A stretch of DNA of 64,000 bases from a virus (IMGVR_UViG_2562617057_000010:1-64000); one strand, 5' to 3'; positions 1-55,802 are shown, counted from the stretch's first letter. Numbers and translations: made by a program. The notes: generated by a model from the letters alone, not told the origin.

Positions 1-50
1 TCGTTTCGGCGCAATTTTCAGCAAACGATCAAAAGTGGTGAAAAATATCG

Positions 51-79
51 TTGACTCATCGCGCCAGGTAAGTAGAATG
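51..79 (+). promoter_or_regulatory. Candidate sigma70 promoter of the tRNA operon
   Basis: -35 TTGACT (51-56), 17-bp spacer, -10 TAGAAT (74-79), A/T-rich upstream, about 70 nt before first tRNA. Confidence 0.5.
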
Positions 80-151
80 CAACGCATCGAACGGCGGCAC
101 TGATTGCCAGACGATAATAAAATCAAGTGATTAACTGATTGCTTGATGAAT

Positions 152-227
<76 letters not shown>

Positions 228-281
228 GTTTAAAAGACATCGGCGTCAAGCGGATGTCTGGCTGAAAGGCCTGAAGAATTT

Positions 282-355
282 GGCGCGTTAACAAAGCGGT
301 TATGTAGCGGATTGCAAATCCGTCTAGTCCGGTTCGACTCCGGAACGCGCCTCCA
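282..355 (+). tRNA. cysT: tRNA-Cys (anticodon GCA)
   Basis: 74-nt tRNA, anticodon loop GATTGCAAATC, T-arm GGTTCGACTCC, 3' CCA. Confidence 0.95.
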
Positions 356-367
356 CTTTTTTCCCGA

Positions 368-454
368 GCCCGGATGGTGGAATCGGTAGACACAAGGGAT
401 TTAAAATCCCTCGGCGTTCGCGCTGTGCGGGTTCAAGTCCCGCTCCGGGTACCA
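368..454 (+). tRNA. leuZ: tRNA-Leu (anticodon TAA), long variable arm
   Basis: 87-nt class II tRNA, anticodon loop TTTAAAATC, T-arm GGTTCAAGTCC, 3' ACCA. Confidence 0.95.
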
Positions 455-497
455 TGGGAAAGATAAGAATAAAATCAAAGCAATAAGCAGTGTCGTG

Positions 498-521
498 AAA
501 CCACCTTCGGGTGGTTTTTTC
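498..521 (+). terminator. Rho-independent terminator of tRNA operon
   Basis: Stem CCACC-TTCG-GGTGG followed by T6. Confidence 0.8.
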
Positions 522-834
522 GTATTTGTATTTTGTGCAATGGCGGTAGAGTGGCGATGGTGTGGCGATATGCAGAAACAATGGTAGTGCACGTGCTGTT
601 TAAACTCTAAGGATGAAGCAGAATTCTTCTGCAGCTCCTCCGTATTTCGCATAGTGAACCAGGACCTCTGTTAAACAAAAATTTTTTTGGGATTTTTCCA
701 CTCGACTTCATTTTTCCTCCTGCAATCCACCAACAGGTACCTGCGCTAATCTATCTTTTTTAATCTGACAACATCTTGGGAAAAGGCAAATTTGAACCGC
801 CCCGGGTTTCCTGGAGAGTGTTTTATCTGTGAAC

Positions 835-1725
835 TCAGGCTGCCAGATCATCGTTTCCGATGGAAGCATAATAAGCTTTTTCTGCTTCTGCCGGAGGAGT
901 ATGGCCCAGCCTTTCCAGCAATCGTCGATTGTTATACCAGTCCACCCACGTGAGTGTGGCCAGTTCCACTTCTGCACGGTTTTTCCAGCTCTTACGGTGT
1001 ATTACCTCCGCTTTGTAAAGACCATTGATGCTCTCCGCCATCGCGTTGTCATACGAGTCGCCTGTACTTCCTGTTGATGCCAGTAATCCGGCTTCCTTAA
1101 GCCGCTGTGTGTAGGCCAGCGATACATACTGAGAACCTTTATCACTGTGATGGACCGTGCCGGACGGTCGACGGGCCCATAACGCCTGCTCCAGTGCATC
1201 CAGCACGAATGTCGTTTCCATGGACGATGAGACCCGCCACCCCACGATGTATCCGGCAAACACATCAATGATGAACGCCACATAGACGAAGCCCTGCCAT
1301 GTGCTGACGTAAGTAAAATCAGCCACCCACAGCTGGTCAGGTCGTTCTGCCACGAACTGACGGTTTACGCGGTCGCCTGCGGCAACGGCTTTCCGGCTGA
1401 TGGTCGTACGGACCTTTTTACCCCGGAGAACACCGGCAAGTCCCATAACCGCCATGAGACGTGCCACAGTGCATCTGGCCACTCTGATGCCTTCCCGTAA
1501 CAACTGACGCCAGACTTTACGCACACCGTATACCTTGTGATTTTCATCGTATACGCGCTGTATCTCTTTCTTCAGCCAGTCATCGCGCTGCGCACGGGCA
1601 CTGCGTTTATCCGGATGATGTCGCTGTTGCTGACAGTGGTAATACGTTGACGGGGCAATATGCAGTTCGCTGCATAGCGGTCCGACCCCGTACTGCTCAC
1701 GCAGCTTATCCAGCAGTGGCATCAT
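835..1725 (-). CDS. IS3-family transposase OrfB (DDE integrase core)
   Basis: 296-aa ORF with rve-type DDE motifs ([22 protein letters not shown]); overlaps orfA by 4 bp. Confidence 0.9.
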
Positions 1726-2048
1726 TTTTTCCAGAGGCGGTCGAACTCCGCCTTCGCAAAATAAGCGGAAGCCTGGCGAAGGATATCGTTACTGCGGCGC
1801 AGTTCACGATTTTCACGCTCCAGCTCTTTCAGACGCTGACGTTCAGCGGTGGTGAGCCCTCCATCACCGCCCCCGGTATCCCGCTCATGCTGGCGAACCC
1901 AGACACGCAGAGTCTCCGGCGTACAGCCAATCTTTGGAGCAATGGAACAAATTGTCGCCCATTGTGAGTCATATTCGCCCTGACTTTCCAGAACCATACG
2001 GACTGCCCGTTGACGGACTTCGGGGGAAAAACGAGTATTTTTAGTCAT
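1722..2048 (-). CDS. IS3-family transposase OrfA (HTH, leucine zipper)
   Basis: 108-aa ORF, N-terminal HTH and C-terminal coiled coil ([13 protein letters not shown]); A-run at overlap with orfB consistent with -1 frameshift site. Confidence 0.9.
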
Positions 2049-2307
2049 CCTGTTTACCTCTTTCTCAGGAAGTTTAGTCTCCAGGATTCCCGGGGCGGTT
2101 CAAATTCGTCAGATTTACTGTTTTTCTGCTGCCTCGAATGCCGATGTCTGAAGCACTGATAAGAGTTCTATCTCTTTGATATAGATCTTTTTTTTGATGA
2201 ATTGCACGACATATTATCGTTATGACACCTTCTTGTTAAAGGTATTGTACTCCTCATCTCGATTTTATGATGTGGGCTATGATTGGTTAGTAATAGAGTG
2301 TATCGGT

Positions 2308-2589
2308 ATGCGATGTGGTTTATTAATGGCAATCTGCCTTTGTTTAGTATCTTTTAGTGGATATGCAGCAACAGGAAAGTCTGATGCTCAGATCAAAAAA
2401 GAAATAATTAAAGAATCCATTGAATCTTATCCAGGCAATTGTGCGTGTCCTTATAATCATGCAAGGAATGGTAGTAGATGTGGTGGACGCAGTGCATATA
2501 GCCGTAATGGAGGGTATGACGTGGTATGTTATGAGGGTGATGTTACCGATGAAATGATCCGGCAATGGAAGCAGGAGAATGCTGAGTAA
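2308..2589 (+). CDS. Small secreted cysteine-rich protein, unknown function
   Basis: Internal ATG of 131-aa ORF gives 93 aa with signal peptide MRCGLLMAICLCLVSFSGYAA and 5 Cys in mature part; own terminator downstream. Confidence 0.45.
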   Translation: MRCGLLMAICLCLVSFSGYAATGKSDAQIKKEIIKESIESYPGNCACPYNHARNGSRCGGRSAYSRNGGYDVVCYEGDVTDEMIRQWKQENAE

Positions 2590-2664
2590 TCTCTTTTAAC
2601 AGGTTTGTTGTGCGAGCATTATGTGCCGTTAACGGTACACTAGCTAGTGATAGTTCCAAAAAGA

Positions 2665-2698
2665 AAACCCGCAGTTCTTACGCTGCGGGTTTGTTGTT
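2665..2698 (+). terminator. Rho-independent terminator
   Basis: Stem CCCGCAG/CTGCGGG followed by TTTGTTGTT. Confidence 0.6.
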
Positions 2699-2777
2699 CA
2701 CGTCTGTGAGATAGGGTGCCACTTCAGCCAACCTTAGCAACCGATTGACGGGGGATTGCTCCCCCGTCGCGGTTTCC

Positions 2778-2918
2778 TTACTGTTTACACTGTAAGAACG
2801 CCGCAAACTCCGCTCCCCAGAAGCTCATCCGTATTTCACACAGCGAACCGTGCAGCATCCAGATGATGAGGATTGCCGTCACGCAGAACGTGATGGCCGT
2901 AAGCGATTTTTGCGACAT
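2778..2918 (-). CDS. Hok/Gef-family type I toxin (46 aa)
   Basis: Hand-translated minus-strand ORF MSQKSLTAITFCVTAILIIWMLHGSLCEIRMSFWGAEFAAFLQCKQ; TM helix plus SLCEIR and AAFLxCK motifs as in Hok/HokA; AAGGAG SD 9 nt upstream; below the 60-aa ORF-track cutoff. Confidence 0.6.
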   Translation of the reverse strand: MSQKSLTAITFCVTAILIIWMLHGSLCEIRMSFWGAEFAAFLQCKQ

Positions 2919-3862
2919 AGCGCTTGCTCCTTTGTTGGAGAGGCGCTAACCTATCACTTGCTTAAGGTAGATATGTTAGGGCCTCGGTTAAACAGAAATG
3001 TTTTCCGGGGCCTTTCCACATCCGGCCTTCGGGTATTCCCTCCGACCATCAGCCGAAAGGCACCCGCGATTATTCTACTGATTTCCCGCTTCTCTGCTAC
3101 GTAAAGTTTCACGTCACCCGTTCGGTTCTCCGCGAAAGTTAAAATTTTGCCGCTTTTGTCGCTGCTTTCGTGAGCGGTTTTTGCTTGCGCCTGAAAATAG
3201 TTACACAGTGAAACTGTGTAACGCTGCGCCAAAACGATCCTTGTCCAATGTTTTGTTTTTACCTTTTATTTCATTGCGTTAAGTGGTTCCTGTGCGTGGC
3301 ACTTTGGCGGCATTCAGATCCTTTAAAATGACGAAAGCAAAAAATAGTTTTGTTTTTCATATGGTTAATTTTTCTGTCAGATCCTTTTTTAACGTTAATC
3401 TGGCAAAGCCTGGCAATCTTTGACACTTTGTGCCAGATGGCTTTTTTGTAAAGCGCCAGTGCTGGCGCGATCTGGAGTGTCGTTTTGCGCAAATTTATTT
3501 GGCAAAAAATTTTTATCGTAAAGAGTGCAAGCGCGGGGGGCTTGCGCCCGTGCCGTGTGTTGGGCTCATCATGCCGTGAAATATCCACGTAGCGTGCGTG
3601 TACGCTTTCAGGCGTTACGAGCTGAATTCAGGGTGACTCGCGCGTTTATTTGCTTAAAGCATGTCGCAGAATGCGATACAGCGCGTCTGGTGGGGGGTGT
3701 TTTTCTGGGGGAATGCCCGTCGCGACGGGCTTTCGTCTGGTTCGATGAATGAAATTTATTGATATATGAATAATTTCACGAAATGCTTATTTGTCTGTAT
3801 TTTGTGGCATGATTCTTGAGTGGTAAACCGGGCTGCCTGTGCACCTCTTCTCATCTGTAAAC

Positions 3863-19677: not shown

Positions 19678-19699
19678 CGGATATCCGACCGGATATCCG
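19678..19699. promoter_or_regulatory. Tandem palindromic operator candidates
   Basis: CGGATATCCG twice (19678-19687, 19690-19699), 30 bp upstream of ner start in the c/ner divergent region. Confidence 0.45.
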
Positions 19700-19728
19700 C
19701 GCGGGTAATTTTGTAGGGTAAAGGAAAG

Positions 19729-19980
19729 ATGAGACAAAGAGAAGATCGCGACCGCGATTGGCCTTCGCTAAAGATTCAGCTGGCGCTCAAAGATAACGGG
19801 TGGTCTTCCTTCCGGGAGCTTTCACTCCATGCTGGTTATGCTCAGGATTCACTGAAAGCGGTGGTTCGTACACCGAACAAAAAATACGAACGCGTAATTT
19901 CTGACGCTATAGGTGTACCGCCAGAAATCATCTGGCCCAGCCGGTATCGTAACGATGGATTTATCAGGAAGGCGTCGTGA
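19729..19980 (+). CDS. ner: Ner-like DNA-binding protein
   Basis: 83 aa with Ner/Nlp signature PEIIWPSRY; first gene of early operon. Confidence 0.8.
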   Translation: MRQREDRDRDWPSLKIQLALKDNGWSSFRELSLHAGYAQDSLKAVVRTPNKKYERVISDAIGVPPEIIWPSRYRNDGFIRKAS

Positions 19981-19981
19981 T

Positions 19982-22087
19982 ATGCAGTCGTACGTTACCG
20001 TAAATGACCTGCTCGGCGTACCAGGAATGCCAGCCACCACAAAAGGCATCCGACAGGCGTTACAGCGTTTTTCTCGTGATCTTGGTGACGTTAGTCGCCG
20101 TCGGGAAGGCACAAAAGCCATTGAGTACCACATTGATTGTCTGCCTGAAATAACACGAAAGGCACTGCGTGAACGCTATGTGGAACAGCTGGTGGCTACA
20201 GAGAACAATGTTTCTGAAGTGAAAGCTGTTACCAGAAAAACACGCAATCCTGACGCTGTCCAGGCAATCGAAGCATATCGCGGTTCTCCACAACTGATGG
20301 AAGAACGCCTGAATGCGCTGACCGAAAACCAGCGCCGGGTATCTGAAGCAAGGGCTGCACTGGTGGTGGAGGTGCTGAAGCTGGAAAGCGACGGTAATCT
20401 CGGGCGACTGAAAGCCATCAACTTTCTTGTTGAAAAAGCCCGTAAAGGTGAATTACCGGAGCGCCTGCAACAAGCCGCAGTTAATGCCAATGCAAAGCGT
20501 GGTGCCAATCGCACCATCAGTCGTGACCCGCTTTATCAGTGGGTGCTGAAATACAACCAGTCGCAGAACGCAGCCGAACGACTGCTGTTACTGGCACCAG
20601 GAAAGCGCGACGAAATAAAACCGGAAGAAATTAGCTGGCTACCTGAATTTCTGGCGCAGTATCGCCAGGCGAATGGCAGACCTATGTCAGAAGCCTACGA
20701 GGATTTTGTCGCGGAATGGCAGCGTCGCCATGCTGACGAACCATACATGCTGGAGGTGATGCCTTCTTACGATGTGGTGCGTTATGCCATGAAGAAATTG
20801 CCGGAAGTGGTGAAACAAAAAGGGCGTGTTACCGGCAGTGAATACCGTCAGCTTGAAGGATTCACCCGCCGCGACTGGACAGCTATGCCGGTGAATTATG
20901 TCTGGATTGGTGACGGTCACGGTATGAAGCTGAAATGTGCGCATCCGGTTCACGGGCGTCCATTTTCGCCGGAAGTTACGTTTGTCATTGATGGTGGAAC
21001 CCGGTTTGTGGTTGGCTGGAGTCTTGATCTTGCTGAAAACGTGTTTGCTGTTGCCGGTGCGATACAGCACGGTATTCGTAATCACGGGAAACCCTTCCTG
21101 TATTACTCGGATAATGGTTCCGGTGAAACGGCAGACATGCTGGATAAAGAGATCGTCGGGATTCTGCCCCGTCTGGGGATTAACCACCCCACCGGTATTG
21201 CCGGAAATCCGCAGGGGCGCGGCATTATTGAGCGCCTGAACCGGACGCTGCCGATGCGTATAGCCAGGAGGTATCGCACCTATTTTGGCAGGGGTGCTGA
21301 CCGGGAATCGTTGCGAGTACTTAATCGTGATCTGCGTTCAGCGTTTAATGCCCTGCAACAGGACAAGCCGCTGAATGCTCGCCAGAAATCTGCAATGCGC
21401 GAGCTGCCGTCCTGGTCAGAACTGATTGAGGCTATTCGCGAAGGCGTGGAATGGTACAACAACCGCCCGCATTCTGAACTGCCGATGAAACCAAACGGGA
21501 AGCATTGCAGCCCGGCTGAGTTCAGGAAAAAACGCCTGGCGGAAGAAAACACCGAAATTGAGTGGCTGAGCGATCTTGAGCTGCGCGACATGTTCCGTCC
21601 GATGGTGGAGCGTCCGGTAAGACGCTGTGAAATCAAATGGCTTGGGAATATTTATTACGCGCCGGAGCTGCGTGATGAACATGGTCGCAAAGTGCTTATC
21701 AGCTATGACATTCATGATGCAGAGCGAATTACAGTGCGCCGTAAGGATGGCAGTTTTATTTGTGAGGCGATATGGAACGGCAATAAACGCGCAGCCTTTC
21801 CTGTCAGTGCGGAATATCACAAACAGCAGCAGCGTATTAAAGGAATGCGCAAACGCGCTGAGGGAAAAATTCGTGATGCTGAAGATGAAGGTATTCAGGT
21901 TATTGAACAAAAAACGACAGAACCCTGGCTGGGGAATGTTTATCGCCCTGTGGGTAATGTGGTGACAGTTCAGCCTCAGGCTCCTGAGGAGACGCTTGAT
22001 AATGCATACAACGCTGAGCGTGATGAATATCTGAATCATTCACTGGATATTCTGGAACAGAAAAGACGTAAAAAGCTGTTTAATTAA
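19982..22087 (+). CDS. A: MuA-like DDE transposase
   Basis: about 702 aa from ATG 19982; integrase-core motifs; C-terminus ERDEYLNHSLDILEQKRRKK resembles the MuA C-terminal tail. Confidence 0.9.
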   Translation: MQSYVTVNDLLGVPGMPATTKGIRQALQRFSRDLGDVSRRREGTKAIEYHIDCLPEITRKALRERYVEQLVATENNVSEVKAVTRKTRNPDAVQAIEAYRGSPQLMEERLNALTENQRRVSEARAALVVEVLKLESDGNLGRLKAINFLVEKARKGELPERLQQAAVNANAKRGANRTISRDPLYQWVLKYNQSQNAAERLLLLAPGKRDEIKPEEISWLPEFLAQYRQANGRPMSEAYEDFVAEWQRRHADEPYMLEVMPSYDVVRYAMKKLPEVVKQKGRVTGSEYRQLEGFTRRDWTAMPVNYVWIGDGHGMKLKCAHPVHGRPFSPEVTFVIDGGTRFVVGWSLDLAENVFAVAGAIQHGIRNHGKPFLYYSDNGSGETADMLDKEIVGILPRLGINHPTGIAGNPQGRGIIERLNRTLPMRIARRYRTYFGRGADRESLRVLNRDLRSAFNALQQDKPLNARQKSAMRELPSWSELIEAIREGVEWYNNRPHSELPMKPNGKHCSPAEFRKKRLAEENTEIEWLSDLELRDMFRPMVERPVRRCEIKWLGNIYYAPELRDEHGRKVLISYDIHDAERITVRRKDGSFICEAIWNGNKRAAFPVSAEYHKQQQRIKGMRKRAEGKIRDAEDEGIQVIEQKTTEPWLGNVYRPVGNVVTVQPQAPEETLDNAYNAERDEYLNHSLDILEQKRRKKLFN

Positions 22088-25084: not shown

Positions 25085-25182
25085 TACCACCATTAATATT
25101 TAATTAATTCACATTCTTTTAATTATTGGCGCGATGCGTCAGGGGACTACTCGCGCCTGAATCAGAACCGGAGAGAATGAAA

Positions 25183-25731
25183 ATGACAGCATGTGCTTAT
25201 TTTAAACTGAGTGACACAGCCGCTAACGCTTATACGATTCGCTGGCTGAAAGATGTTTCTGTTAAGCGTGACAAAATCATCTGCTCATTGCAGCGTGCGT
25301 TTGGCGCAGACGGTGTTTCCCTTGTCAGTAACAGAGGGTATGAACGGGTTGAATGTATCTGGATGAATCAATTAGCGCCGGAATTATGGCGTGGTAAATC
25401 AGACGGACTGTTTATTGGTGGATTTCCGTTTTATGGCGTTGTACCGGATATAACAACACCGGAAGGCCGAAACAATGCGACGCTTATTCAGGAACATGAA
25501 GAGCAACTCCGGAAATATCCCACATTCCCGGTCTGGTTGTGTAATGAACTCGGGGTTGATGTTGTACCCAACATGTTTGATCTCAAATCAGTCTGGACGA
25601 TGCACCACAGCCGTGACGGATTCGGCATTTTGTTTGAGGTGTGCCTGCTGGATGGTGAGGTTAAGGGACCGGTTCCTGCCGAATGCCAGCGCATTAAACA
25701 TTCTGAATTTGTGGCACTGACGGAGGAATAA
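25183..25731 (+). CDS. Early protein, unknown function
   Basis: about 183 aa from ATG 25183 (GGAGAG SD). Confidence 0.4.
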   Translation: MTACAYFKLSDTAANAYTIRWLKDVSVKRDKIICSLQRAFGADGVSLVSNRGYERVECIWMNQLAPELWRGKSDGLFIGGFPFYGVVPDITTPEGRNNATLIQEHEEQLRKYPTFPVWLCNELGVDVVPNMFDLKSVWTMHHSRDGFGILFEVCLLDGEVKGPVPAECQRIKHSEFVALTEE

Positions 25732-26964: not shown

Positions 26965-27274
26965 TATGAATAATGGTGTATTTTCAAAATCAGAAGAGCT
27001 TGCCGCCCTGCTGATTGCCGGTGGTTTGCCGAAAAAAGAAGTGCATGACTTTGTGAATTTTGTATATGAGACGTCTCATGAAAAAGCTATTGATGAGGTC
27101 ATGGCGTACCGGTTTGGCATTATTGCTGAGTCACTGAGTCCTCACTGGATTATTGAAAATCTCCGCGCTATTGCTGATGGCAACGATAAATCAGCAGCCG
27201 TTGCTGCACTGGATGTGTTACGGCAAATGAGTCTGAAATTTTATCCTGAATTTATTCTGAGGGCCGCAAAATGA
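26951..27274 (+). CDS. Early protein, unknown function
   Basis: 107 aa. Confidence 0.4.
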   Translation: MKVSDMNNGVFSKSEELAALLIAGGLPKKEVHDFVNFVYETSHEKAIDEVMAYRFGIIAESLSPHWIIENLRAIADGNDKSAAVAALDVLRQMSLKFYPEFILRAAK

Positions 27275-28816: not shown

Positions 28817-29205
28817 CGTCCTCAATATCCTGTGATGAATTACCGTACCGGGGAAAATCATCATGGGTAAAGGCTGGAATGCATCCTTTCATCTTGGCAG
28901 ACGTGAGCGGCTGCGTCAGGAGGTTTTACACCGTGTCGCCGGTGGGCCACGGCCTTCGCCCCGCGACTATACCGGTCATGATGGCACCCACGGAAGTTAT
29001 TACATGAAAGGCTGGCAGTCGGTTGATATGCCGGAAATTCTTCACCACTGTCAACGTTATAAGGAAAAATATTGTGTACAGAAAATTCAGTGATGAATGT
29101 TTCGGGCCGTCCACGCTGATGAGTGCGATAAAAGTGATTGCCCTTGTGGTTCTGATAACCATCAGTGCCGTGGTGTATCTTTCCGTCTGTTAACCGGGGG
29201 AAAAT

Positions 29206-29628
29206 ATGCAGCATGATTTATTTGAACACGATCCGGCAATTCGCCAGTTAATCGGACATATTGATAACATCCCGGCCCCGGAACTGGAATCACGCTGGCC
29301 CCGTTCGGTGGTTGATCTGATTGATGTTCTGGAAAACGAACTGAAACGCCAGAACATCAGCAATCCCCGTGAGCTTGCCCGTAAACAGGCCGTTGCCCTG
29401 TCCTGTTTTCTGGGGGGGCGGCAGTTTTATATCCCCTGTGGCGATACTATCCTGACCGCGTTACGCGACGATTTGCTTTACTGCCAGTTCAATGGTCGTA
29501 ACATGGAAGAACTGCGTCGCCAGTACCGCCTGTCCCAGCCGCAGATCTACCAGATTATTGCCCGCCAGAGAAAGCTGCATACACGACGTCATCAGCCTGA
29601 TCTGTTCTCACCAGAAAGCCCAAAATAA
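29206..29628 (+). CDS. C: C-like late-gene transcription activator
   Basis: 140 aa, paralogous to Mor in this window (shared NGRN...L motif), preceded by 420-bp Pm-type intergenic region. Confidence 0.85.
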   Translation: MQHDLFEHDPAIRQLIGHIDNIPAPELESRWPRSVVDLIDVLENELKRQNISNPRELARKQAVALSCFLGGRQFYIPCGDTILTALRDDLLYCQFNGRNMEELRRQYRLSQPQIYQIIARQRKLHTRRHQPDLFSPESPK

Positions 29629-32408: not shown

Positions 32409-34064
32409 ATGAGCACCAGAGAAAGCAAACTTAAAGCCCTTCATGCGCCCCGCAAAATCGACCTGCGTAGGGAAGCCGAACTGCTCGGCGTGAATATCGT
32501 TACCGATATCGGGGAAGCACAGCCCCGCAATGAACCGGTTTTTCTGGGCTATCAGCGCCGCTGGTTTGAGGATGAAAGCCAGATTTGCATCGCTGAAAAA
32601 TCCCGTCGTACCGGTCTGACATGGGCCGAAGCGGGCCGCAATGTCATGACGGCAGCAAAGCCGCGCCGCCGTGGCGGTCGCAACGTCTTTTATGTGGGTT
32701 CCCGTCAGGAAATGGCGCTGGAATACATCGCCGCCTGTGCCCTGTTTGCCCGCGCCTTTAACCAGCTGGCAAAGGCTGACGTATGGGAGCAGACCTTCTG
32801 GGACAGTGACAAAAAAGAAGAAATCCTCACTTATATGATCCGTTTCCCTAACAGCGGATTTAAGGTGCAGGCGCTGTCAAGCCGTCCGTCTAACCTGCGT
32901 GGTTTGCAGGGGGACGTGGTGATTGATGAGGCGGCATTTCATGAAGCCCTGGACGAACTCCTGAAAGCGGCCTTTGCTCTCATCATGTGGGGTGCCCGCG
33001 TGCGGATCATATCGACACATAACGGCGTCGATAACCTGTTTAACCAGTACATTCAGGATGCGCGTGAGGGGCGCAAGGATTACAGCGTTCACCGCATCAC
33101 GCTGGATGATGCCATCGCTGACGGACTGTACCGGCGTATCTGTTACGTCACGAATCAGCCGTGGTCGCCGGAAGCGGAAAAAGCCTGGCGTGATGGCCTG
33201 TACCGGAATGCGCCGAATAAAGAGAGTGCCGACGAGGAATACGGCTGTATTCCAAAAAAATCCGGGGGCGCTTATCTGTCACGCGTGCTGATTGAAGCCG
33301 CCATGACGCCAGCGCGGGATATCCCGGTTCTGCGTTTTGAAGCCCCGGACGATTTTGAATCGCTGACACCACAAATGCGCCACGGCATCGTTCAGGACTG
33401 GTGTGAACAGGAGCTGCTCCCGTTGCTCGATGCGCTGTCGCCGCTCAATAAACACGTACTGGGCGAAGACTTTGCACGCCGTGGCGACCTGACGGTGTTT
33501 GTGCCGCTTGCCATCACTCCTGACTTACGCAAACGCGAATGTTTCCGCGTGGAGCTGCGTAATGTGACCTATGACCAGCAGCGACAAATCCTTTTATTCA
33601 TTCTGTCCCGTTTGCCCCGTTTTACCGGCGCTGCATTTGATGCCACCGGTAACGGCGGTTATCTGGCAGAAGCCGCCCGTCTGATTTATGGCCCGGAGAT
33701 GATCGACTGCATCAGTCTGACCGCCGCCTGGTATCAGGAGTGGATGCCGAAACTGAAAGGCGAGTTTGAAGCGCAGAACATCACGATTGCCCGGCATCAG
33801 ACCACACTCGATGACCTGCTTCATATCAAGGTGGACAAAGGTATTCCGCAGATTGATAAGGGGCGCACAAAAGATGAAAGCGGTAAAGGCCGACGACATG
33901 GTGACTTTGCCGTGGCGCTCTGTATGGCTGTCAGGGCGTCTTATATGAATGGTTTTGTTATCGACGAGGACAGCATACAGGCGCTGCCACCACGCCACCG
34001 TGGTGATGATGTTGATAACGATGATTTTGATGATTATCACCAGTTTGAACGAGGGGGCTGGTAA
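32409..34064 (+). CDS. Terminase large subunit
   Basis: 551 aa, ATPase plus nuclease architecture, Mu gp28 position. Confidence 0.8.
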   Translation: MSTRESKLKALHAPRKIDLRREAELLGVNIVTDIGEAQPRNEPVFLGYQRRWFEDESQICIAEKSRRTGLTWAEAGRNVMTAAKPRRRGGRNVFYVGSRQEMALEYIAACALFARAFNQLAKADVWEQTFWDSDKKEEILTYMIRFPNSGFKVQALSSRPSNLRGLQGDVVIDEAAFHEALDELLKAAFALIMWGARVRIISTHNGVDNLFNQYIQDAREGRKDYSVHRITLDDAIADGLYRRICYVTNQPWSPEAEKAWRDGLYRNAPNKESADEEYGCIPKKSGGAYLSRVLIEAAMTPARDIPVLRFEAPDDFESLTPQMRHGIVQDWCEQELLPLLDALSPLNKHVLGEDFARRGDLTVFVPLAITPDLRKRECFRVELRNVTYDQQRQILLFILSRLPRFTGAAFDATGNGGYLAEAARLIYGPEMIDCISLTAAWYQEWMPKLKGEFEAQNITIARHQTTLDDLLHIKVDKGIPQIDKGRTKDESGKGRRHGDFAVALCMAVRASYMNGFVIDEDSIQALPPRHRGDDVDNDDFDDYHQFERGGW

Positions 34065-35602
34065 TGGGCCGTATTCTGGATATTTCCGGGCAGCCGTTTG
34101 ATTTTGACGATGAAATGCAGACCCGCAGCGATGAGCTGGCAATGGTCATGAAGCGCACGCAGGAGCATCCTTCCAGTGGTGTGACGCCGAACCGGGCCGC
34201 GCAGATGCTGCGTGATGCCGAACGCGGTGATCTGACAGCACAGGCTGACCTGGCCTTTGATATGGAAGAAAAGGACACCCACCTTTTTTCCGAACTGAGC
34301 AAGCGCCGCCTTGCCATTCAGGCGCTGGAATGGCGCATCGCTCCGGCACGTGATGCCAGCGCACAGGAGAAAAAAGACGCCGACATGCTGAATGAATATC
34401 TGCATGATGCGGCGTGGTTTGAAGATGCCCTGTTTGATGCCGGTGATGCCATTCTCAAGGGTTATTCCATGCAGGAGATTGAATGGGGCTGGCTGGGCAA
34501 AATGCGCGTGCCGGTGGCGCTGCATCATCGCGATCCGGCGCTGTTCTGCGCGAACCCCGATAATCTGAACGAATTACGTCTGCGTGATACGTCTTATCAC
34601 GGGCTGGAGCTGCAACCGTTCGGCTGGTTTATGCACCGGGCCAAATCCCGCACCGGGTATGTTGGCACCAATGGCCTTGTGCGCACGCTTATCTGGCCTT
34701 TTATTTTTAAAAACTATTCCGTGCGTGATTTTGCAGAGTTTCTGGAAATTTACGGACTCCCCATGCGCGTCGGTAAATATCCGACCGGCTCCACAAACCG
34801 TGAGAAAGCCACGCTGATGCAGGCCGTGATGGATATCGGGCGACGTGCCGGTGGCATTATTCCGATGGGGATGACGCTGGATTTTCAGAGCGCCGCAGAT
34901 GGTCAGTCAGACCCCTTTATGGCGATGATTGGCTGGGCAGAAAAAGCGATTTCAAAAGCCATTCTGGGCGGCACCCTGACCACAGAGGCTGGCGATAAAG
35001 GTGCACGGTCGCTGGGTGAAGTGCATGATGAGGTTCGCCGGGAAATCCGTAACGCGGATGTGGGCCAGCTTGCCCGCAGTATTAACCGTGACCTGATTTA
35101 TCCCCTGCTGGCACTGAACAGTGACAGCACCATTGATATTAACCGCCTGCCGGGCATTGTATTTGATACCAGTGAAGCGGGTGATATTACGGCACTGTCT
35201 GACGCCATTCCGAAACTGGCGGCGGGAATGCGTATTCCGGTCTCCTGGATACAGGAAAAACTTCATATTCCACAGCCGGTCGGTGATGAAGCCGTGTTTA
35301 CTGCTCAACCGGTTGTCCCGGATAACGGTCCGCAGAAAGAGGCCGCATTATCCGCTGAAGATATCCCGCAGGAGGATGATATCGACCGGATGGGCGTCTC
35401 ACCGGAAGACTGGCAGCGTTCGGTTGATCCCCTGCTGAAACCCGTCATTTTTTCTGTGCTGAAAGATGGCCCGGAAGCCGCCATGAACAAAGCCGCTTCA
35501 TTATATCCGCAGATGGATGATGCAGAACTTATCGACATGCTGACCCGTGCCATTTTTGTTGCCGATATATGGGGGCGTCTGGATGCCGCAGCAGACCATT
35601 GA
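34064..35602 (+). CDS. Portal protein (Mu H-like)
   Basis: 512 aa following terminase. Confidence 0.8.
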   Translation: MGRILDISGQPFDFDDEMQTRSDELAMVMKRTQEHPSSGVTPNRAAQMLRDAERGDLTAQADLAFDMEEKDTHLFSELSKRRLAIQALEWRIAPARDASAQEKKDADMLNEYLHDAAWFEDALFDAGDAILKGYSMQEIEWGWLGKMRVPVALHHRDPALFCANPDNLNELRLRDTSYHGLELQPFGWFMHRAKSRTGYVGTNGLVRTLIWPFIFKNYSVRDFAEFLEIYGLPMRVGKYPTGSTNREKATLMQAVMDIGRRAGGIIPMGMTLDFQSAADGQSDPFMAMIGWAEKAISKAILGGTLTTEAGDKGARSLGEVHDEVRREIRNADVGQLARSINRDLIYPLLALNSDSTIDINRLPGIVFDTSEAGDITALSDAIPKLAAGMRIPVSWIQEKLHIPQPVGDEAVFTAQPVVPDNGPQKEAALSAEDIPQEDDIDRMGVSPEDWQRSVDPLLKPVIFSVLKDGPEAAMNKAASLYPQMDDAELIDMLTRAIFVADIWGRLDAAADH

Positions 35603-36902
35603 TCTGGCGTATGCCGCACGCCTCCCGCCAAAGGAGGCTGTCGCGTATTTCCGCGCCAAAGGCTACAACATCACCTGGAACTGGTACGAACAACTGGCAG
35701 ACGCGCACGCCCGCGCCTTTACCGTTGCCAAAGCCACCCGGATGGATGTCCTGACCACAATCCGTGGGGAAGTGGAGCGGGCTGTCAGTGAAGGCATCAC
35801 CCGTGAAGAATTTACCCGCACACTGGCCCCCCGGCTGCAAAAACTCGGATGGTGGGGAAAACAAATCATCGTGGATGCAGAGGGAAACGCGAAGGTAATC
35901 GAGCTGGGCAGTCCGCGTCGTCTGGCAACCATTTATAACGTCAATACCCGTACAGCGTACGGGGCGGGACGTTATGCACAGATGATGAATACCGCAGATT
36001 TGTATCCGTACTGGCAGTACGTTGCCGTTATGGATGGCAGAACACGCCCGGAACATGCGCGGCTGCACAATATGGTTTTCCGGTATGACGACATTTTCTG
36101 GCAGACGCATTACCCGCCCAATGGCTGGAACTGCCGCTGTCGCGTCCGGGCGCTGTCTGCGGCCCGCATGAAAGAACTGGGGCTACAGGTCAGTTATGGG
36201 GCGTCATTCATGAATACCCGCGAAGTGGATGCCGGTACGGATGAAAGCACCGGAGAGATTTTCCGCACATCGTCAACCACGTTTGACAACGGTCGGGTAA
36301 AAATGACGCCGGATGTGGGCTGGTCATATAACCCCGGTTCGGCGGCATTTGGTACGGATCAGGCACTGATTCGAAAACTGGTGGAAGTTCGTGACGCGCA
36401 GCTGCGTGAGCAGGTTGTTCAGACGCTGAATAACAGCCGGGAGCGTCAGCTTGCTTTTTCCCTCTGGCTTAAACGTCTGGCGAAATCACGCCGGGCCGGA
36501 CATGAGGTCCGTGCGCTGGGGTTTATGACGGAAGCCGTGGCGGAGGCCGTATATCAGCGCACCGGGAATATGCCAGCCCGTCTGCTTGTGATGAACGGAA
36601 AAAGTCTGGCGACCACTGCTGATGCCGCCCTGAAACTGGAGGATTTACAGCGTCTGCCGTCACTGATGGCAAAACCACAGGCGGTATTGTGGGACAGGGA
36701 GAACCACCAGTTGCTGTATGTTGTGGCAACCCGCGACGGCACTGCAAAAGTTGTGGTCAGAACATCGCAGGCTGTCAGCAAACAGAATGACCGGGCGGAT
36801 GTGCTGGTCAGTATCAGCCGCGTATCTGCACAGTCGCTTGAAGCCGCGATTGCTGACGGGATGATTGACATACTGGAGGGGCATGTGGAGGTGAATAAGT
36901 GA
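35583..36902 (+). CDS. Head morphogenesis protein (Mu F-like)
   Basis: about 440 aa after portal. Confidence 0.75.
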   Translation: MPQQTIDLAYAARLPPKEAVAYFRAKGYNITWNWYEQLADAHARAFTVAKATRMDVLTTIRGEVERAVSEGITREEFTRTLAPRLQKLGWWGKQIIVDAEGNAKVIELGSPRRLATIYNVNTRTAYGAGRYAQMMNTADLYPYWQYVAVMDGRTRPEHARLHNMVFRYDDIFWQTHYPPNGWNCRCRVRALSAARMKELGLQVSYGASFMNTREVDAGTDESTGEIFRTSSTTFDNGRVKMTPDVGWSYNPGSAAFGTDQALIRKLVEVRDAQLREQVVQTLNNSRERQLAFSLWLKRLAKSRRAGHEVRALGFMTEAVAEAVYQRTGNMPARLLVMNGKSLATTADAALKLEDLQRLPSLMAKPQAVLWDRENHQLLYVVATRDGTAKVVVRTSQAVSKQNDRADVLVSISRVSAQSLEAAIADGMIDILEGHVEVNK

Positions 36903-50429: not shown

Positions 50430-50962
50430 CACCCTGGCAGACGGCCTTTCTGCAATTACTGCCGTCAGGGCTTGCCTGGAATAAAAGCCCCGACAGCAAA
50501 TTATCTGCGCTGGCGCAGGCCATCAGCGACGTGATTGCCACTGCGGCGGATGATGCGCGGCAAATACTGCGGGAGCGTTTCCCGTCCACATCCCGCTGGT
50601 ATCTGGGTGAGTGGGAATCACTTCTGGGGTTGCCGGACTGTACAAGCGAAAACGGCACCCTGTCCGAACGCCAGCGGGCTGCCGCGAATAAAATGCGTAT
50701 GACCGGCAATCTGAGTCGGCGCTTTTATGAATGGCTGGCTGCGCAGTACGGTTTTACCGTCAGGCTGACGGATTCCACAGAAGGCCAGTGGGTTACGCAG
50801 GTCAATATTTACGGTATTAAAAATTATCGCAACGCAACGGTGCTGGATAATGTTCTGACGCCGTTACGTGTTTATGAATCGGGTGCGCTGGAATGTTTAC
50901 TGGAGAAATATAAACCCGCGCATCAGATTTATAAATTTGTTTACCATGACGGAGATAACTAA
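50420..50962 (+). CDS. Baseplate protein (gpI/gp48-like)
   Basis: 180 aa. Confidence 0.7.
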   Translation: MAVTPWQTAFLQLLPSGLAWNKSPDSKLSALAQAISDVIATAADDARQILRERFPSTSRWYLGEWESLLGLPDCTSENGTLSERQRAAANKMRMTGNLSRRFYEWLAAQYGFTVRLTDSTEGQWVTQVNIYGIKNYRNATVLDNVLTPLRVYESGALECLLEKYKPAHQIYKFVYHDGDN

Positions 50963-52473
50963 TGTTTTATATTGATAACGACAGCGGCGTAACCGTCATG
51001 CCGCCCGTATCCGCCCAGCGTAGTGCTATCGTTCGCTGGTTTTCAGAAGGTGACGGGAATAATGTTATCACATGGCCCGGCATGGACTGGTTTAATATTG
51101 TGCAGGCGGAGTTATTAAACACGCTGGAAGAAGCCGGTATTCAACCGGATAAAACAAAATTAAACCAGCTTGCACTGTCCATTAAAGCCATTATGAGCAA
51201 TAACGCGCTGCTGATAAAAAATAACCTCAGCGAAATTAAAACTGCCGGGGCATCAGCACAGCGTACAGCACGTGAAAATCTGGATATCTATGATGCCAGC
51301 CTGAACAAAAAAGGACTCGTTCAGCTAACCAGTGCCACTGACAGCCCCAGTGAAACGCTGGCAGCCACCGCAAAAGCGGTGAAAATTGCGATGGATAATG
51401 CCAGTGCCCGTCTGGCAAAAGACCGGAACGGAGCAGATATTCCCAATAAGCCGCTGTTTATCCAAAACGTCGGTTTACAGGAAACGGTAAACCGGGCCAG
51501 GAACGCTGTGCAAAAAAATGGCGATACCTTGTCCGGCGGACTTACTTTTGAAAACAACTCAATCCTTGCCTGGATTCGGAATACTGACTGGGCAAAGATT
51601 GGTTTTAAAAATGATGCCGACAGCGATACTGATTCCTACATGTGGTTTGAAACAGGCGACAACGGCAATGAATATTTCAAATGGAGACACCGCATCATTG
51701 GCACCCGGCCTAAAGACCTGATGAATCTTAAATGGAATGCTTTGTCTGTTCTTGTTAAAGCCCTTTTCAGCAGTGAAGTGAAAATATCGACAGTCAATGC
51801 ACTGAGGATATTTAATTCATCTTTTGGTGCCATTTTTCGCCGTTCTGAAGAATGCCTGCATATCATCCCTACACGAGAGAATGAGGGAGAAAATGGTAAT
51901 ATAGGGCCATTACGCCCCTTTACGCTTAATCTCAGAACTGGCCGGATAAGCATGGGGCATGGTCTGGTTGTTACAGGAGATATATTTGCAAACCGTTTTG
52001 CAATTAACAGTAGTACCGGCATGTGGATTCATATGCGTGACCAGAATGTTATTCTGGGCCGTAATGCGGTATCCAACGATGGTGCGCAGGCATTGCTTCG
52101 CCAGGACCATACCGACCGTAAATTCGTAATTGGTGGGCTGGGGAATAAGCAATTTGGCATCTACATGATTAATAACTCAAGGACAGCCAATGGCACCGAT
52201 GGTCAGGCGTACATGGATAATAACGGTAACTGGCTTTGTGGTGCGCAAGTTATTCCCGGCAACTATGGCAATTTTGATTCCAGATATGTGAAAGATGTTC
52301 GACTTGGTACTCGTGTTGTTCAGGTCATGCAAAGAGGCGTGATGTATGAAAAATCAGGTCATGTAATAACAGGGCTTGGCATTATTGGCTCTGTTGATGG
52401 TGATGACCCAGCAGTATTCAGACCAATACAAAAATACATCAATGGCACATGGTATAACGTCGCACAGGTATAA
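50962..52473 (+). CDS. S: Tail fibre protein S (constant plus variable part)
   Basis: 503 aa, C-terminal [11 protein letters not shown]; contains gix-like site at 51458-51483. Confidence 0.85.
   Translation: MFYIDNDSGVTVMPPVSAQRSAIVRWFSEGDGNNVITWPGMDWFNIVQAELLNTLEEAGIQPDKTKLNQLALSIKAIMSNNALLIKNNLSEIKTAGASAQRTARENLDIYDASLNKKGLVQLTSATDSPSETLAATAKAVKIAMDNASARLAKDRNGADIPNKPLFIQNVGLQETVNRARNAVQKNGDTLSGGLTFENNSILAWIRNTDWAKIGFKNDADSDTDSYMWFETGDNGNEYFKWRHRIIGTRPKDLMNLKWNALSVLVKALFSSEVKISTVNALRIFNSSFGAIFRRSEECLHIIPTRENEGENGNIGPLRPFTLNLRTGRISMGHGLVVTGDIFANRFAINSSTGMWIHMRDQNVILGRNAVSNDGAQALLRQDHTDRKFVIGGLGNKQFGIYMINNSRTANGTDGQAYMDNNGNWLCGAQVIPGNYGNFDSRYVKDVRLGTRVVQVMQRGVMYEKSGHVITGLGIIGSVDGDDPAVFRPIQKYINGTWYNVAQV
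51458..51483. other. gix/hix-type invertase crossover site
   Basis: TTATCCAAAACGTCGGTTTACAGGAA, one mismatch from the recalled Mu gix sequence. Confidence 0.65.
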
Positions 52474-53032: not shown

Positions 53033-53566
53033 TCATTCTGGTTGTTCTGGAAACGTTACTGGCAGGCTGGAGGTGTCTGTGGATTCGACCTTCTGCGCAT
53101 AGAGCATCCACTCGGTTAATTTTTGTTTATTCTCGTCGGAAATGATGCCCAGCCGTAGCTGTGAGTCCCATAGCTGAGTTTTATCCCTGACAAGTTGCAA
53201 CAGACTTTGCTTTTCATTTTCCGCCTGTTGCCTCTGTTCTTCCCCGGTATAAGTTCGCTTTATCACTACGCCATCTTTGAACATCCATTTACCCGAAATA
53301 TCAGCCCGGCGATTTGCTGTAATATCAGGTAATTCAATGACGCTTGCGCCTTCCGGATTAATTGCTGAAACATCCTTTTCAATACAAATAATAACGCCGT
53401 TGTGGTCATAGACCATTTTCAACGTATCAGGCTGAAAGTTCTTTTGCTCCTCATACCAGTTTTTCCCATCCTCTGTATAAAGCCATTTGATGTTAAATTG
53501 CTTTGTTAGCTGGTATTGCTCTTTTGTTTCAGGATTACCAGCAGAAATGTTTTTTAAGTGCATCAT
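53033..53566 (-). CDS. Alternative tail fibre assembly protein U' (inverted copy)
   Basis: 177 aa on opposite strand, convergent with U, same fold family. Confidence 0.8.
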   Translation of the reverse strand: MMHLKNISAGNPETKEQYQLTKQFNIKWLYTEDGKNWYEEQKNFQPDTLKMVYDHNGVIICIEKDVSAINPEGASVIELPDITANRRADISGKWMFKDGVVIKRTYTGEEQRQQAENEKQSLLQLVRDKTQLWDSQLRLGIISDENKQKLTEWMLYAQKVESTDTSSLPVTFPEQPE

Positions 53567-53568
53567 CG

Positions 53569-54081
53569 TTAAATACTCCCCGCGTTATACCACGTTCCAT
53601 TAATGCAATACTGAACTGGCCTTGCCTGAGTTGTATCAATTAGTGCATCTCTGTTTGAGTTAACGGAACCGGTAACAACATAACCTGACCTGTCAGACCA
53701 GCCGGGACCATTCCATGTCTGAACAGATGACAGACCACCAAGGCGAATACCTGTAATAAACCTTGAGTTACATTCTGCCTGCGTATATGCGCCAACATCT
53801 CTCGCTGATGGCTTGCGTGTTGTGGTGTAAAACTCTGACCAGCCAGCCTCAAATCCATAACCATCACGCGCTGAACGATAAAAAATACCGCCGTTCTTAT
53901 AATTCACACGGAACTGTACAGCAGGGCAACTCCCCGTATTCATATTGAAGTGGAGTATTAATGCTGTTGCGCCTTTGATATCTGCATCATAAACACCGCT
54001 AATCAATGCAATATAGAAAACGACGATCGAATCAATTGAATCGATCGGTAATACAGATCGATTATGTCCTGATAACCACAC
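53569..54081 (-). pseudogene. Alternative tail fibre variable segment Sv' (no constant region, no adjacent gix or gin)
   Basis: ORF with tail-fibre C-terminus YCINGTWYNAGSI; 5' part overlaps the GATC cluster of the mom regulatory region, so coding extent is uncertain. Confidence 0.5.
54020..54062 (+). promoter_or_regulatory. mom upstream regulatory region with clustered Dam (GATC) sites
   Basis: GATC at 54025, 54043, 54056 within 35 bp, about 75 bp upstream of com. Confidence 0.6.
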
Positions 54082-54133
54082 TCACCCCATGATGTTTTTT
54101 AAGATAGTGGCGAATTGATGCAAAGGAGGTGAG

Positions 54134-54322
54134 ATGAAATCAATTCGCTGTAAGAACTGCAACAAACTGTTATTTAAGGCGGGTTCCTTTGATCACATTG
54201 AAATCAGGTGTCCGCGTTGCAAACGTCACATCATAATGCTGAATGCCTGCGAGCATCCCACGGAGAAACATTGTGGGAAAAGAGAAGAAATCACGCATTC
54301 TGACGAAACCGTGCGTTATTGA
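54134..54322 (+). CDS. com: Com zinc-finger translational activator
   Basis: 62 aa, CKNC...CPRC zinc finger, overlaps mom start. Confidence 0.85.
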
Positions 54323-54968
54323 GTATGAAGGCCAGATTGTTGGCTATGGTTCAAAGGAGCTGCGCGTTGAAACCATATCCTGCTGGCTGGCCCGCACAAT
54401 CATTCAGACAAAACATTACTCCCGCCGTTTTGTGAATAACTCTTACCTTCACCTGGGAGTATTCAGCGGACGTGAGCTGGTTGGCGTTCTCCAGTGGGGA
54501 TATGCCCTTAACCCCAACTCAGGTCGTCGTGTCGTGCTTGAAACGGATAACCGGGGTTATATGGAGCTGAACCGCATGTGGCTACACGACGACATGCCCC
54601 GCAACTCTGAATCACGGGCCATCAGTTATGCGCTGAAAACCATCAGATTACTGTATCCATCAGTGGAATGGGTACAGTCCTTTGCAGACGAACGCTGCGG
54701 ACGTGCTGGCGTTGTGTATCAGGCGTCAAATTTTGATTTTATTGGCGGCCATGAAAGCACGTTCTACGAGCTGGATGGCGAGTGGTATCACGAGATAACG
54801 ATGAACGCGATTAAGCGCGGTGGACAACGAGGCGTGTATTTACGGGCTAATAAAGAGCGTGCCGTGGTGCATAAATTTAATCAGTATCGCTACATCAGGT
54901 TCCTGAACAAGCGAGCAAAGAAGCGGCTAAATACTAAGCTATTCAGGATTCAGCCATATCCGAAATGA
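54243..54968 (+). CDS. mom: Mom DNA-modification protein
   Basis: ORF overlapping com 3' end, last gene before the right end; true start probably internal. Confidence 0.75.
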
Positions 54969-54983
54969 TCCCATTTAATGAAT

Positions 54984-55014
54984 AAAAAAACAGCGGTTAA
55001 TGCCGCTGTTTTAT
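54984..55014. terminator. Hairpin terminator after mom
   Basis: A-run, CAGCGG-TTAAT-GCCGCTG, T-run. Confidence 0.65.
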
Positions 55015-55089
55015 CTTGAATAACTTCCATATGCGCGCTTCTGGCTTATCTTGAATGATTTCCATATCTATCTTGAATAATTTTCCGCG
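55011..55089. repeat. Right-end transposase-binding repeats (3x TTATCTTGAAT)
   Basis: Copies at 55011-55020, 55046-55055, 55068-55077; reverse complement of the left-end motif, closely packed. Confidence 0.6.
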
Positions 55090-55100
55090 CTTTACTTTCG

Positions 55101-55802
55101 TTATACCGCCCGTAATGCGCGCAGACGGGCGGCTATTTTGTTTCGTATGGCGCGAACACCTGCTTTGGGAGTGGTGCTGTGCGCACGGGCCATCCACTCA
55201 TCGGCGCTACGTAGTTTCGCCACGTCGTAAATGGCGGCCGGGGTTGTCGGTTTGCCATCGCTGTCCCGTAACAGGTTAAGACCGGCGAATTTGTACCATC
55301 TGGCAACTATCTCTTCGTGCAGTGTCCAGTCTTTTTCGATATGGCTCATCACGCGGCTGAAATAGGGCTCGACGGAAAGGCCTTTATCAAACTGAATCTG
55401 TGCCCACTGCATGACCTCATCGGCGACGAACGTTGGCAAATCACGGTCAAAGCGTGGTGGCATGGGTTGATTCTGTCCGATGGCGATATCGGCCCATTCC
55501 AGAGCTTTGTCCATTTCGCCGGTATCAAACAGCCAGACGATGCACCAGGTAAACGGGATGTATTTGTACTCCTCGCCGCTTTGCAGCCACGCCTCAATCG
55601 TCGGCATCCAGCGCGGCAGCAGGGATTCACGCTTGAATGCCACACGATCGGCGTTGGTGGCGCAACTGCTCACAGCCCTGCAGTCGATTTCCAGTTGCGC
55701 CAGTTGCAGATGAAGACTGTCGCGTACGGTCAGTGCCTCGCGGTGTTCCATTGCCTGCTGCGCGGCCAGTCTGGCTCTGAACTTTTGCGCCGGAGTCTGC
55801 AT
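55101..55802 (-). CDS. M: Terminase small (endonuclease) subunit, P2 gpM-like
   Basis: 233 aa; stop lies 7-12 bp from the Mu-like right end. Confidence 0.7.
   Translation of the reverse strand: MQTPAQKFRARLAAQQAMEHREALTVRDSLHLQLAQLEIDCRAVSSCATNADRVAFKRESLLPRWMPTIEAWLQSGEEYKYIPFTWCIVWLFDTGEMDKALEWADIAIGQNQPMPPRFDRDLPTFVADEVMQWAQIQFDKGLSVEPYFSRVMSHIEKDWTLHEEIVARWYKFAGLNLLRDSDGKPTTPAAIYDVAKLRSADEWMARAHSTTPKAGVRAIRNKIAARLRALRAV

Follow-up and report, generated by a model that had tools for sequence, protein, structure and literature searches.

When a com–mom DNA-modification operon lies against a truncated tail-fibre gene, with almost all of the invertase gene gin missing between them, is it still a working unit or the leftover of a decaying prophage? 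This question is raised by a locus in a 64,000-nucleotide viral sequence, IMGVR_UViG_2562617057_000010:1-64000 (hereafter the window, to which coordinates refer unless another sequence is named). We read positions 54011-54968 as the late com–mom operon of a transposable prophage of the Mu family (18727-55094), and very probably it works as in phage Mu. The functions given to com and mom are read across from Mu homology at every step. The locus agreed with the Mu system at each sequence feature tested, and the com–mom copy is ordinary and intact in sequence, in a system already known and well studied in Mu, of which the natural gin deletion and the mosaic prophage ends are minor variants. The analysis thus holds little new biology and is mainly of use for annotation, where the element can be entered as a phage of the Mu family whose com–mom operon is intact and whose G segment is frozen.

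A Mu-family prophage

In megablast searches against phage genomes, the window matched Mu, D108, PhiR68_1, SfMu and Yersinia Mu-like phages. Positions 21994-55020 are 87–98% identical to Mu, and all Mu middle and late structural genes are present at full length. The repressor gene c, ner, A and the terminal sequences are not those of Mu. The A protein carries the Pfam domains Mu-transpos_C and HTH_Tnp_Mu_1, and the B protein (Phage-MuB_C) is 74.5% identical to Mu B. With Mu-type transposition genes, repeats at its termini, a short target duplication and a Mu-type late region, the element is assigned by sequence to the Mu family of transposable phages. From 54011 onwards the window aligned to Mu (NC_000929) 35645-36653 with 94.3% identity over 1,011 nt (blastn).

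Several smaller differences were seen in the body of the prophage. A close phage relative was found for the C-terminal two-thirds of A only, in Yersinia vB_YpM_5/6 (92.6%). Compared with Mu, there is extra DNA after gam and gp13, and gp19 is missing (25166-25720, 26975-27268, 29044-29075). At the left of the window, positions 1-3800 match E. coli DNA, with an IS3-family transposase, a Hok/Gef toxin locus, a tRNA-Leu and an Ogr/Delta-like zinc-finger gene, indicating that the host is E. coli or a very close relative.

Coding capacity of com and mom

The mom gene (54243..54968, plus strand) encodes a protein of 241 aa if translation begins at the ATG at 54243 and of 231 aa if it begins at the GUG at 54273, and by homology its product is a GNAT-fold adenine N6 hypermodification enzyme. 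The open reading frame shares 235 of 241 residues with Mu Mom (98%) and matches Pfam PF25680 over profile positions 1-202 of 202 (252.5 bits, cutoff 27.1); the only PDB relative is Mu Mom itself (8bv8, E 4.5e-156). An NCBIfam HMM search returned no match for Com or Mom, both of which were matched by Pfam. Alanine substitution of H48, Y49, R101, S114, D139 or Y149 (231-aa numbering) impairs Mom (PMC7261163). All six residues are present when the protein is numbered from the GUG at 54273, and since the published numbers fit, the start of the 231-aa protein is confirmed there. A structural study from 2026 pointed to W48, H58, Y59, R111, S124, D149, R151, Y159 and W181 and to an essential insertion at 175-209 (PMC13219725). 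In the 241-aa numbering these nine residues are identical to Mu, as is the whole helix-turn-helix-like insertion 175-209, and hence all residues tied to activity by published mutagenesis are retained in the predicted protein.

The six substitutions relative to Mu Mom (D78E, V133T, S169G, R226K, K235R and V236I) all fall outside the key residues and are conservative, and four of them are common to the mom genes of a second com–mom class described below. At the nucleotide level, 39 differences from Mu give only these six amino-acid changes, which indicates purifying selection. The initial annotation had called the module intact, and the alignment with Mu bore this out: no inactivating mutation was found in mom, and the com and mom reading frames contain no frameshift and no stop. 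Its label of DNA modification also holds, with the difference that the chemistry has since been revised: Mom is at present regarded as an enzyme that modifies adenine N6 in dependence on Gly-tRNA(Gly) (PMC13219725), and the gene deserves an updated enzyme name. RefSeq names for the same mom gene (E. coli hits H72-H137) are inconsistent and include 'hypothetical protein', 'protein mom', 'Mom family adenine methylcarbamoylation protein' and 'tRNA(Gly)-dependent adenine aminoacyltransferase Mom'.

Upstream, com (54134..54322, plus strand) encodes a 62-aa zinc-ribbon protein, by homology the translational activator of mom. As the initial annotation had stated, it is a zinc-finger gene that overlaps mom; counted from the GUG start, the two share 54273-54322. 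Com is identical to Mu Com at 60 of 62 positions (97%), scores 37.6 bits against Pfam PF10122, Zn_ribbon_Com (cutoff 22.9), and keeps all four zinc-binding cysteines (Cys6, Cys9, Cys26 and Cys29). The two substitutions are D17G and K52E. Among Mu-type Com proteins D17G is unique to this lineage, a point that could be counted in favour of a module that is intact in sequence yet silent or deregulated, a cryptic leftover in a prophage no longer growing lytically. However, G17 and E52 both occur in natural Com homologues, and in the divergent second Com class the equivalent of position 17 is naturally Gly, which gives indirect support to the view that D17G would be tolerable.

The start of mom lies in an mRNA control element (54236..54277, plus strand) with the same predicted fold as in Mu. 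A hairpin, AUGCU...AGCAU (54236-54256), is followed by a stem, CCCACGG/UUGUGGG (54257-54277), in which the mom GUG (54273-54275) and part of the Shine-Dalgarno sequence are predicted to be paired. We take the roles of the two hairpins, as Com target and as the structure that hides the mom start, to be those of the Com literature (Wulczyn and Kahmann; Hattman). Fold energies were not better than those of shuffled sequence, and the fold z-score is not significant by itself. The hairpins were therefore accepted not on fold energy but because they are identical to the characterised ones of Mu: positions 54215-54283 are the same as in Mu, as are the predicted stems. The nearest substitution on the 3' side, at 54284, is synonymous in mom and gives K52E in Com, and it is also found in a plaque-forming Yersinia phage. 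An Rfam search of 53800-55200 at a permissive threshold gave matches at chance level only (E 0.4–0.95, far under gathering scores). Downstream of mom, and still within the stretch that aligns to Mu (to 55020), a hairpin between an A-run and a T-run (54987..55012) is likely a bidirectional intrinsic terminator.

A deletion that removed gin and froze the G segment

Immediately to the left of the operon lies the remnant of Sv', the alternative tail-fibre tip (53569..54001, minus strand), recognised by tblastn, blastn and Pfam gp37_C. It comprises the C-terminal ~143 codons. Residues 186-328 of Mu S' match 54000..53572 with 91.6% identity (tblastn), and the blastn homology to Mu 32980-34499 stops at 54001. 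The N-terminal ~175 codons of the variable part are missing, together with the link to the constant part Sc. The next ~9 nt, ATCAATGCA (54002..54010), form the deletion junction and are a clean match to neither parent. They are followed by a 3' remnant of gin (54011..54039, plus strand; Mu 35645-35673) that holds the last eight codons, IENDDRIN, and a stop (codons 54013-54039), the stop being TGA here and TAA in Mu; the first GATC site of the mom control region lies inside this remnant. The module was said to be fused directly to the Sv' remnant, and it does abut the truncated gene, with the ~9 nt and the eight gin codons in between.

Relative to Mu, the blastn alignment places the missing sequence at Mu 34500-35644, a total of 1,145 bp. 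With it went gixR, 553 of the 582 bp of gin and ~525 bp from the start of the variable part of Sv', and a tblastn search with Mu Gin found no match elsewhere in the window. The left recombination site, gixL, is kept inside S (51458..51483, one substitution) but lacks both a partner and an invertase. Beside the deletion, S, U and U' have kept their full length, and a complete tail-fibre assembly gene precedes the Sv' fragment. The initial annotation had described the G/gin region as seemingly degraded. This was correct in that gin and gixR are absent, and it was not correct as a description of general decay, for what we found is one clean deletion.

Neither breakpoint lies at a gix site, and a Gin-mediated deletion between gix sites was rejected on this ground. 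The microhomology AAACAC(CC)CGC is common to the Sv' flank and the gin 3' flank of the junction; together with the position of the breakpoints away from gix, it indicates an illegitimate deletion of the microhomology type and not an invertase event. As far as sequence can tell, the region is not a working Gin/gix inversion system, and with gin and gixR gone the G segment is frozen with S and U as the expressed pair. The phage host range is accordingly predicted to be that given by the S/U fibres alone. The fibre protein S (50962-52473) is only 78.6% identical to Mu S, the divergence lying in the variable part (51762-52437), so that the locked host range may differ from that of Mu G(+). Laboratory Mu derivatives that are gin-defective and locked in G(+) behave in the same manner: loss of the invertase freezes the G segment, and only S/U fibres are made. 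Like them, this phage would be limited to one fibre set; unlike them, it carries a natural deletion that also took gixR and half of Sv' and that occurs, in public data, at two insertion sites.

Assemblies are known to go wrong at invertible segments that carry inverted repeats, and the Sv'–mom junction might on that account be an artefact, such as a collapse across the G segment, with gin really present. In agreement with this, the junction was spanned by none of 5,426 complete E. coli genomes, and the exact junction 30-mer was not found in any GTDB species representative. The breakpoints, however, fall in Sv' and in the 3' end of gin with short microhomology and not at the gix repeats, and one independent IMG/VR contig (UViG_2850808358_000012) carries the identical 30-mer. 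This contig is 99.68% identical to window positions 53534-55094 over 1,561 nt, has five mismatches nearby, and differs from the window in its flanks on both the left and the right; the same junction in a differently flanked contig argues against an artefact, which we regard as highly improbable. In UViG_2850808358_000012, Mom is 100% identical and Com has G17. The occurrence of one junction at two insertion sites implies that the gin-less lineage transposed after the deletion. It is thus a propagating phage variant and not a decaying remnant, and the same observation weighs against the silent-module alternative raised above.

A different origin of the layout was also considered, in which the absence of gin is ancestral and the lineage never had an invertible segment, as in the second com–mom class. 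Among the 43 IMG/VR mom loci, about 20 lack gin and have com–mom placed after a non-invertible fibre gene, as do about 40 E. coli genomes, and these loci have the same end type as this prophage. Yet the window still holds traces of an invertible segment of the kind known from Mu, namely the last eight codons and stop of gin, gixL in S, a full U' and an inverted, truncated Sv'. Its com and promoter are of the Mu type and not of the second class. An ancestral gin-less state is therefore highly improbable, and we retain the deletion of gin from a Mu-type arrangement as the origin of the junction.

The mom promoter and its upstream control region

We next consider whether the deletion left mom control whole. 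The mom transcription start was set at ~54112 from the published -58..+20 fragment (PMC3378877, PMC4461284), which places the right edge of the deletion ~100–110 bp upstream of it. Three Dam sites, GATC, follow at 54025, 54043 and 54056 (54025..54059), at about -87, -69 and -56. The initial annotation had pointed to these three sites within 35 bp upstream of com as an indication of the Dam/OxyR-controlled architecture, and they are indeed placed as in Mu, D108 and SfMu. The triple is the only one of its kind in the window, and no GATC occurs in the 3.65 kb preceding it. When 144 GATC sites were placed randomly in 64 kb, however, such a triple arose in 27% of trials, and the clustering was dropped as statistical evidence. 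The real support for the triple is that its positions match those in Mu, D108, SfMu and ~20 further Mu-type loci; they are identical also in Yersinia Mu-like phages and IMG/VR loci. In Mu this region is a methylation-sensitive operator for OxyR, through which Dam and OxyR act (PMC3378877, PMC2909390). Similar operators, with GATC sites whose methylation state decides repression by OxyR, occur at agn43 and at the gtr loci of Salmonella and P22 (PMC2909390). The mom sites resemble these in being embedded in an OxyR operator, and differ in that mom, unlike those phase-variable surface genes of host or phage, also needs a phage activator and a translational activator.

Between 54011 and the com ATG there are five substitutions relative to Mu, of which one falls in 54011-54066. 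The dyad for the late activator C, TTAT-N6-ATAA (54062..54075; -50 to -37), keeps both half-sites in sequence, the half-sites being defined as we understand them from the Pmom literature. Its spacer is GTCCTG here, GCCCCA in Mu and GTCTCA in D108 and Yersinia vB_YpM_5. The spacer of the window thus differs at three of six positions and is a new variant with respect to the phages compared, which could again speak for a silent module. D108 and the plaque-forming Yersinia phages nevertheless also differ from Mu in the spacer, from which it follows that this element varies among working phages. In Mu the dyad lies just upstream of a non-optimal -35 (bioRxiv 10.1101/2025.05.02.651988). The weak mom promoter itself (54075..54112, plus strand) has a -35-like ACCACA (54075-80), a 19-bp spacer that includes a T6 run (54095-54100), and a -10 element TAAGAT (54100-05). 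Its only substitution relative to Mu lies in the spacer, at 54087, which leaves both the T6 run and the -10 as they are in Mu. No consensus sigma-70 promoter was found at this position, as expected for a promoter that depends on an activator. The activator required for Pmom is encoded in the prophage by gene C (29206..29628, plus strand), whose product shares 138 of 140 residues with Mu C, and Mor is 99% identical to that of Mu.

The edge of the deletion also bears on repression. We take the OxyR footprint at Pmom to extend from -104 to -59, in which case the deletion ends at or just outside it (by roughly 0–10 bp), and the operator is likely to be whole. Among the Fis sites, the distal one at -123 is lost, and those at -98, -49, -38 and +3 are kept. 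A deletion that ends beside the operator and takes the -123 site might be expected to leave a deregulated module. Fis occludes the core mom promoter in Mu, but loss of both the -123 and the -98 sites did not relieve repression (PMC3378877), which weighs against such deregulation.

Two further features of the junction were observed. A 170-codon open reading frame on the minus strand (53569-54081) has a GTG start inside the mom promoter and runs into the Sv' remnant. The divergent promoter momP2 of Mu would here face the Sv' remnant and U', and not run antisense to gin.

Prophage ends and insertion site

The right end of the prophage (55013..55094) has three ATCTTGAA repeats, at 55013, 55048 and 55070, and is not the Mu attR sequence. 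Inverted copies of ATCTTGAA occur at the left end at 18744, 18815 and 18867. The left end was set at 18727 (TATGACTAGG…) by comparison with five IMG/VR contigs, and the right end from differently flanked IMG/VR contigs and from an empty site in E. coli FDAARGOS_943. The termini accordingly read TATGACTAGG… and …CCGCGCTTT(A), with three ATTCAAGAT-type repeats per end (18727-22000; 55013-55094), and the terminal dinucleotide appears to be TA and not TG/CA.

The prophage is nested in a P2-like prophage, between the small-terminase gene gpM (stop at 55101) and the head-completion gene. In E. coli FDAARGOS_943 this P2-like region recurs, 99.9% identical and free of the insert, with GCTTT as the target. 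The P2-like flank has no near match in the phage collection and a near match in E. coli genomes. In the window the insert is flanked by GCTTT and ACTTT (flanks 18680-18726 and 55095-55110; L015 1440-1520). A perfect 5-bp target duplication does not fit these two copies; the duplication is either an imperfect one of 5 bp, with one base changed, or one of 4 bp together with a terminal A of the element.

In complete E. coli genomes, this type of end goes with the second com–mom class, and the sequence comparison identifies the prophage as a mosaic whose crossover lies close to the 3' end of mom. Residence within another prophage is a further point that a silent or deregulated module would accommodate. 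But all essential Mu genes are full length, and the changes in mom are mostly synonymous. Together with the second insertion site, the natural Gly in Com, the variable spacer and the Fis data, these points make a cryptic leftover unlikely, and an operon that works as in Mu is the reading followed below.

Relation to other com–mom loci and proposed working

The locus has in common with the com–mom operons of Mu and D108 the gene order, the com/mom overlap, the three GATC sites, the C half-sites, the T6 run and the -10, as well as the Com-target hairpin, the stem that hides the mom start and the terminator. It differs from them in having no gin upstream, in the GTCCTG spacer, in Com D17G and K52E and in the six Mom changes, and downstream of the terminator its last 80 bp belong to another type of transposon end. 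The second class, which is common (for example IMG/VR L017, L031 and L033, and E. coli STEC346 and VL40), has the same TATGAC… ends as this prophage and no gin. Its Mom is 96–98% identical, whereas its Com is only ~75% identical. The region upstream of com in that class has two CGATCG in a palindromic arrangement and no Mu-type C dyad, and the operon follows a non-invertible tail-fibre gene and an assembly gene. Loci of this class were L017, L031-L033, L035-L037, L042, L044-L052 and L058, and E. coli hits H109-H137.

If the operon works as in Mu, it would be silent in the lysogen and in early infection, when the intrinsically weak promoter would be further held down by Fis on the promoter-proximal sites, and OxyR could bind the upstream operator as long as the three GATC sites were not fully methylated. 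In late lytic growth, Dam-methylated GATC sites would keep OxyR off, and activator C (29206-29628) on the TTAT-N6-ATAA dyad would recruit RNA polymerase. Com, translated from the late transcript, would then bind the hairpin at 54236-54256, open the adjacent stem and free the mom GUG. Mom would move glycine from Gly-tRNA(Gly) to adenine N6 of double-stranded DNA in SAS contexts, after which the glycyl group would rearrange to N6-carbamoylmethyl-adenine, shielding progeny DNA from many restriction enzymes (PMC13219725). Virion DNA of this phage is hence predicted to be resistant to many such enzymes. As the deletion stops just outside the GATC/OxyR region, it would have locked the tail fibre in S/U and left mom control whole.

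Recurrent deletion endpoints at the 3' end of gin

Two further independent gin deletions were present among the 43 IMG/VR mom loci, in L030 (Mu 33658-35637) and in L039-43 (Mu 35256-35634). The right endpoints of the window, L030 (2732) and L039-L043 (~2730) fall within ~25 bp of one another, and the left endpoints are scattered. One interpretation, which we put forward only tentatively and think doubtful, is that the extreme 3' end of gin, immediately before the GATC/OxyR operator, is a recurrent breakpoint at which a self-contained and exchangeable com–mom cassette has its left edge, with selection by mom toxicity barring endpoints further to the right and with the focus on this position arising from a GC-rich microhomology, CACCCCGCG, or from a module-exchange boundary. 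The limit on the right can be put down to selection against unregulated mom, but the absence of endpoints earlier in gin cannot. The clustering, which comprises three events, is only a lead, and a small one, on the natural extent of the mom control region. A fourth deletion was seen in L057 (2573-3432), another Mu-type locus, where gin (codon ~161) is fused to mom (codon ~93); com is lost together with the promoter, and mom is destroyed as well.
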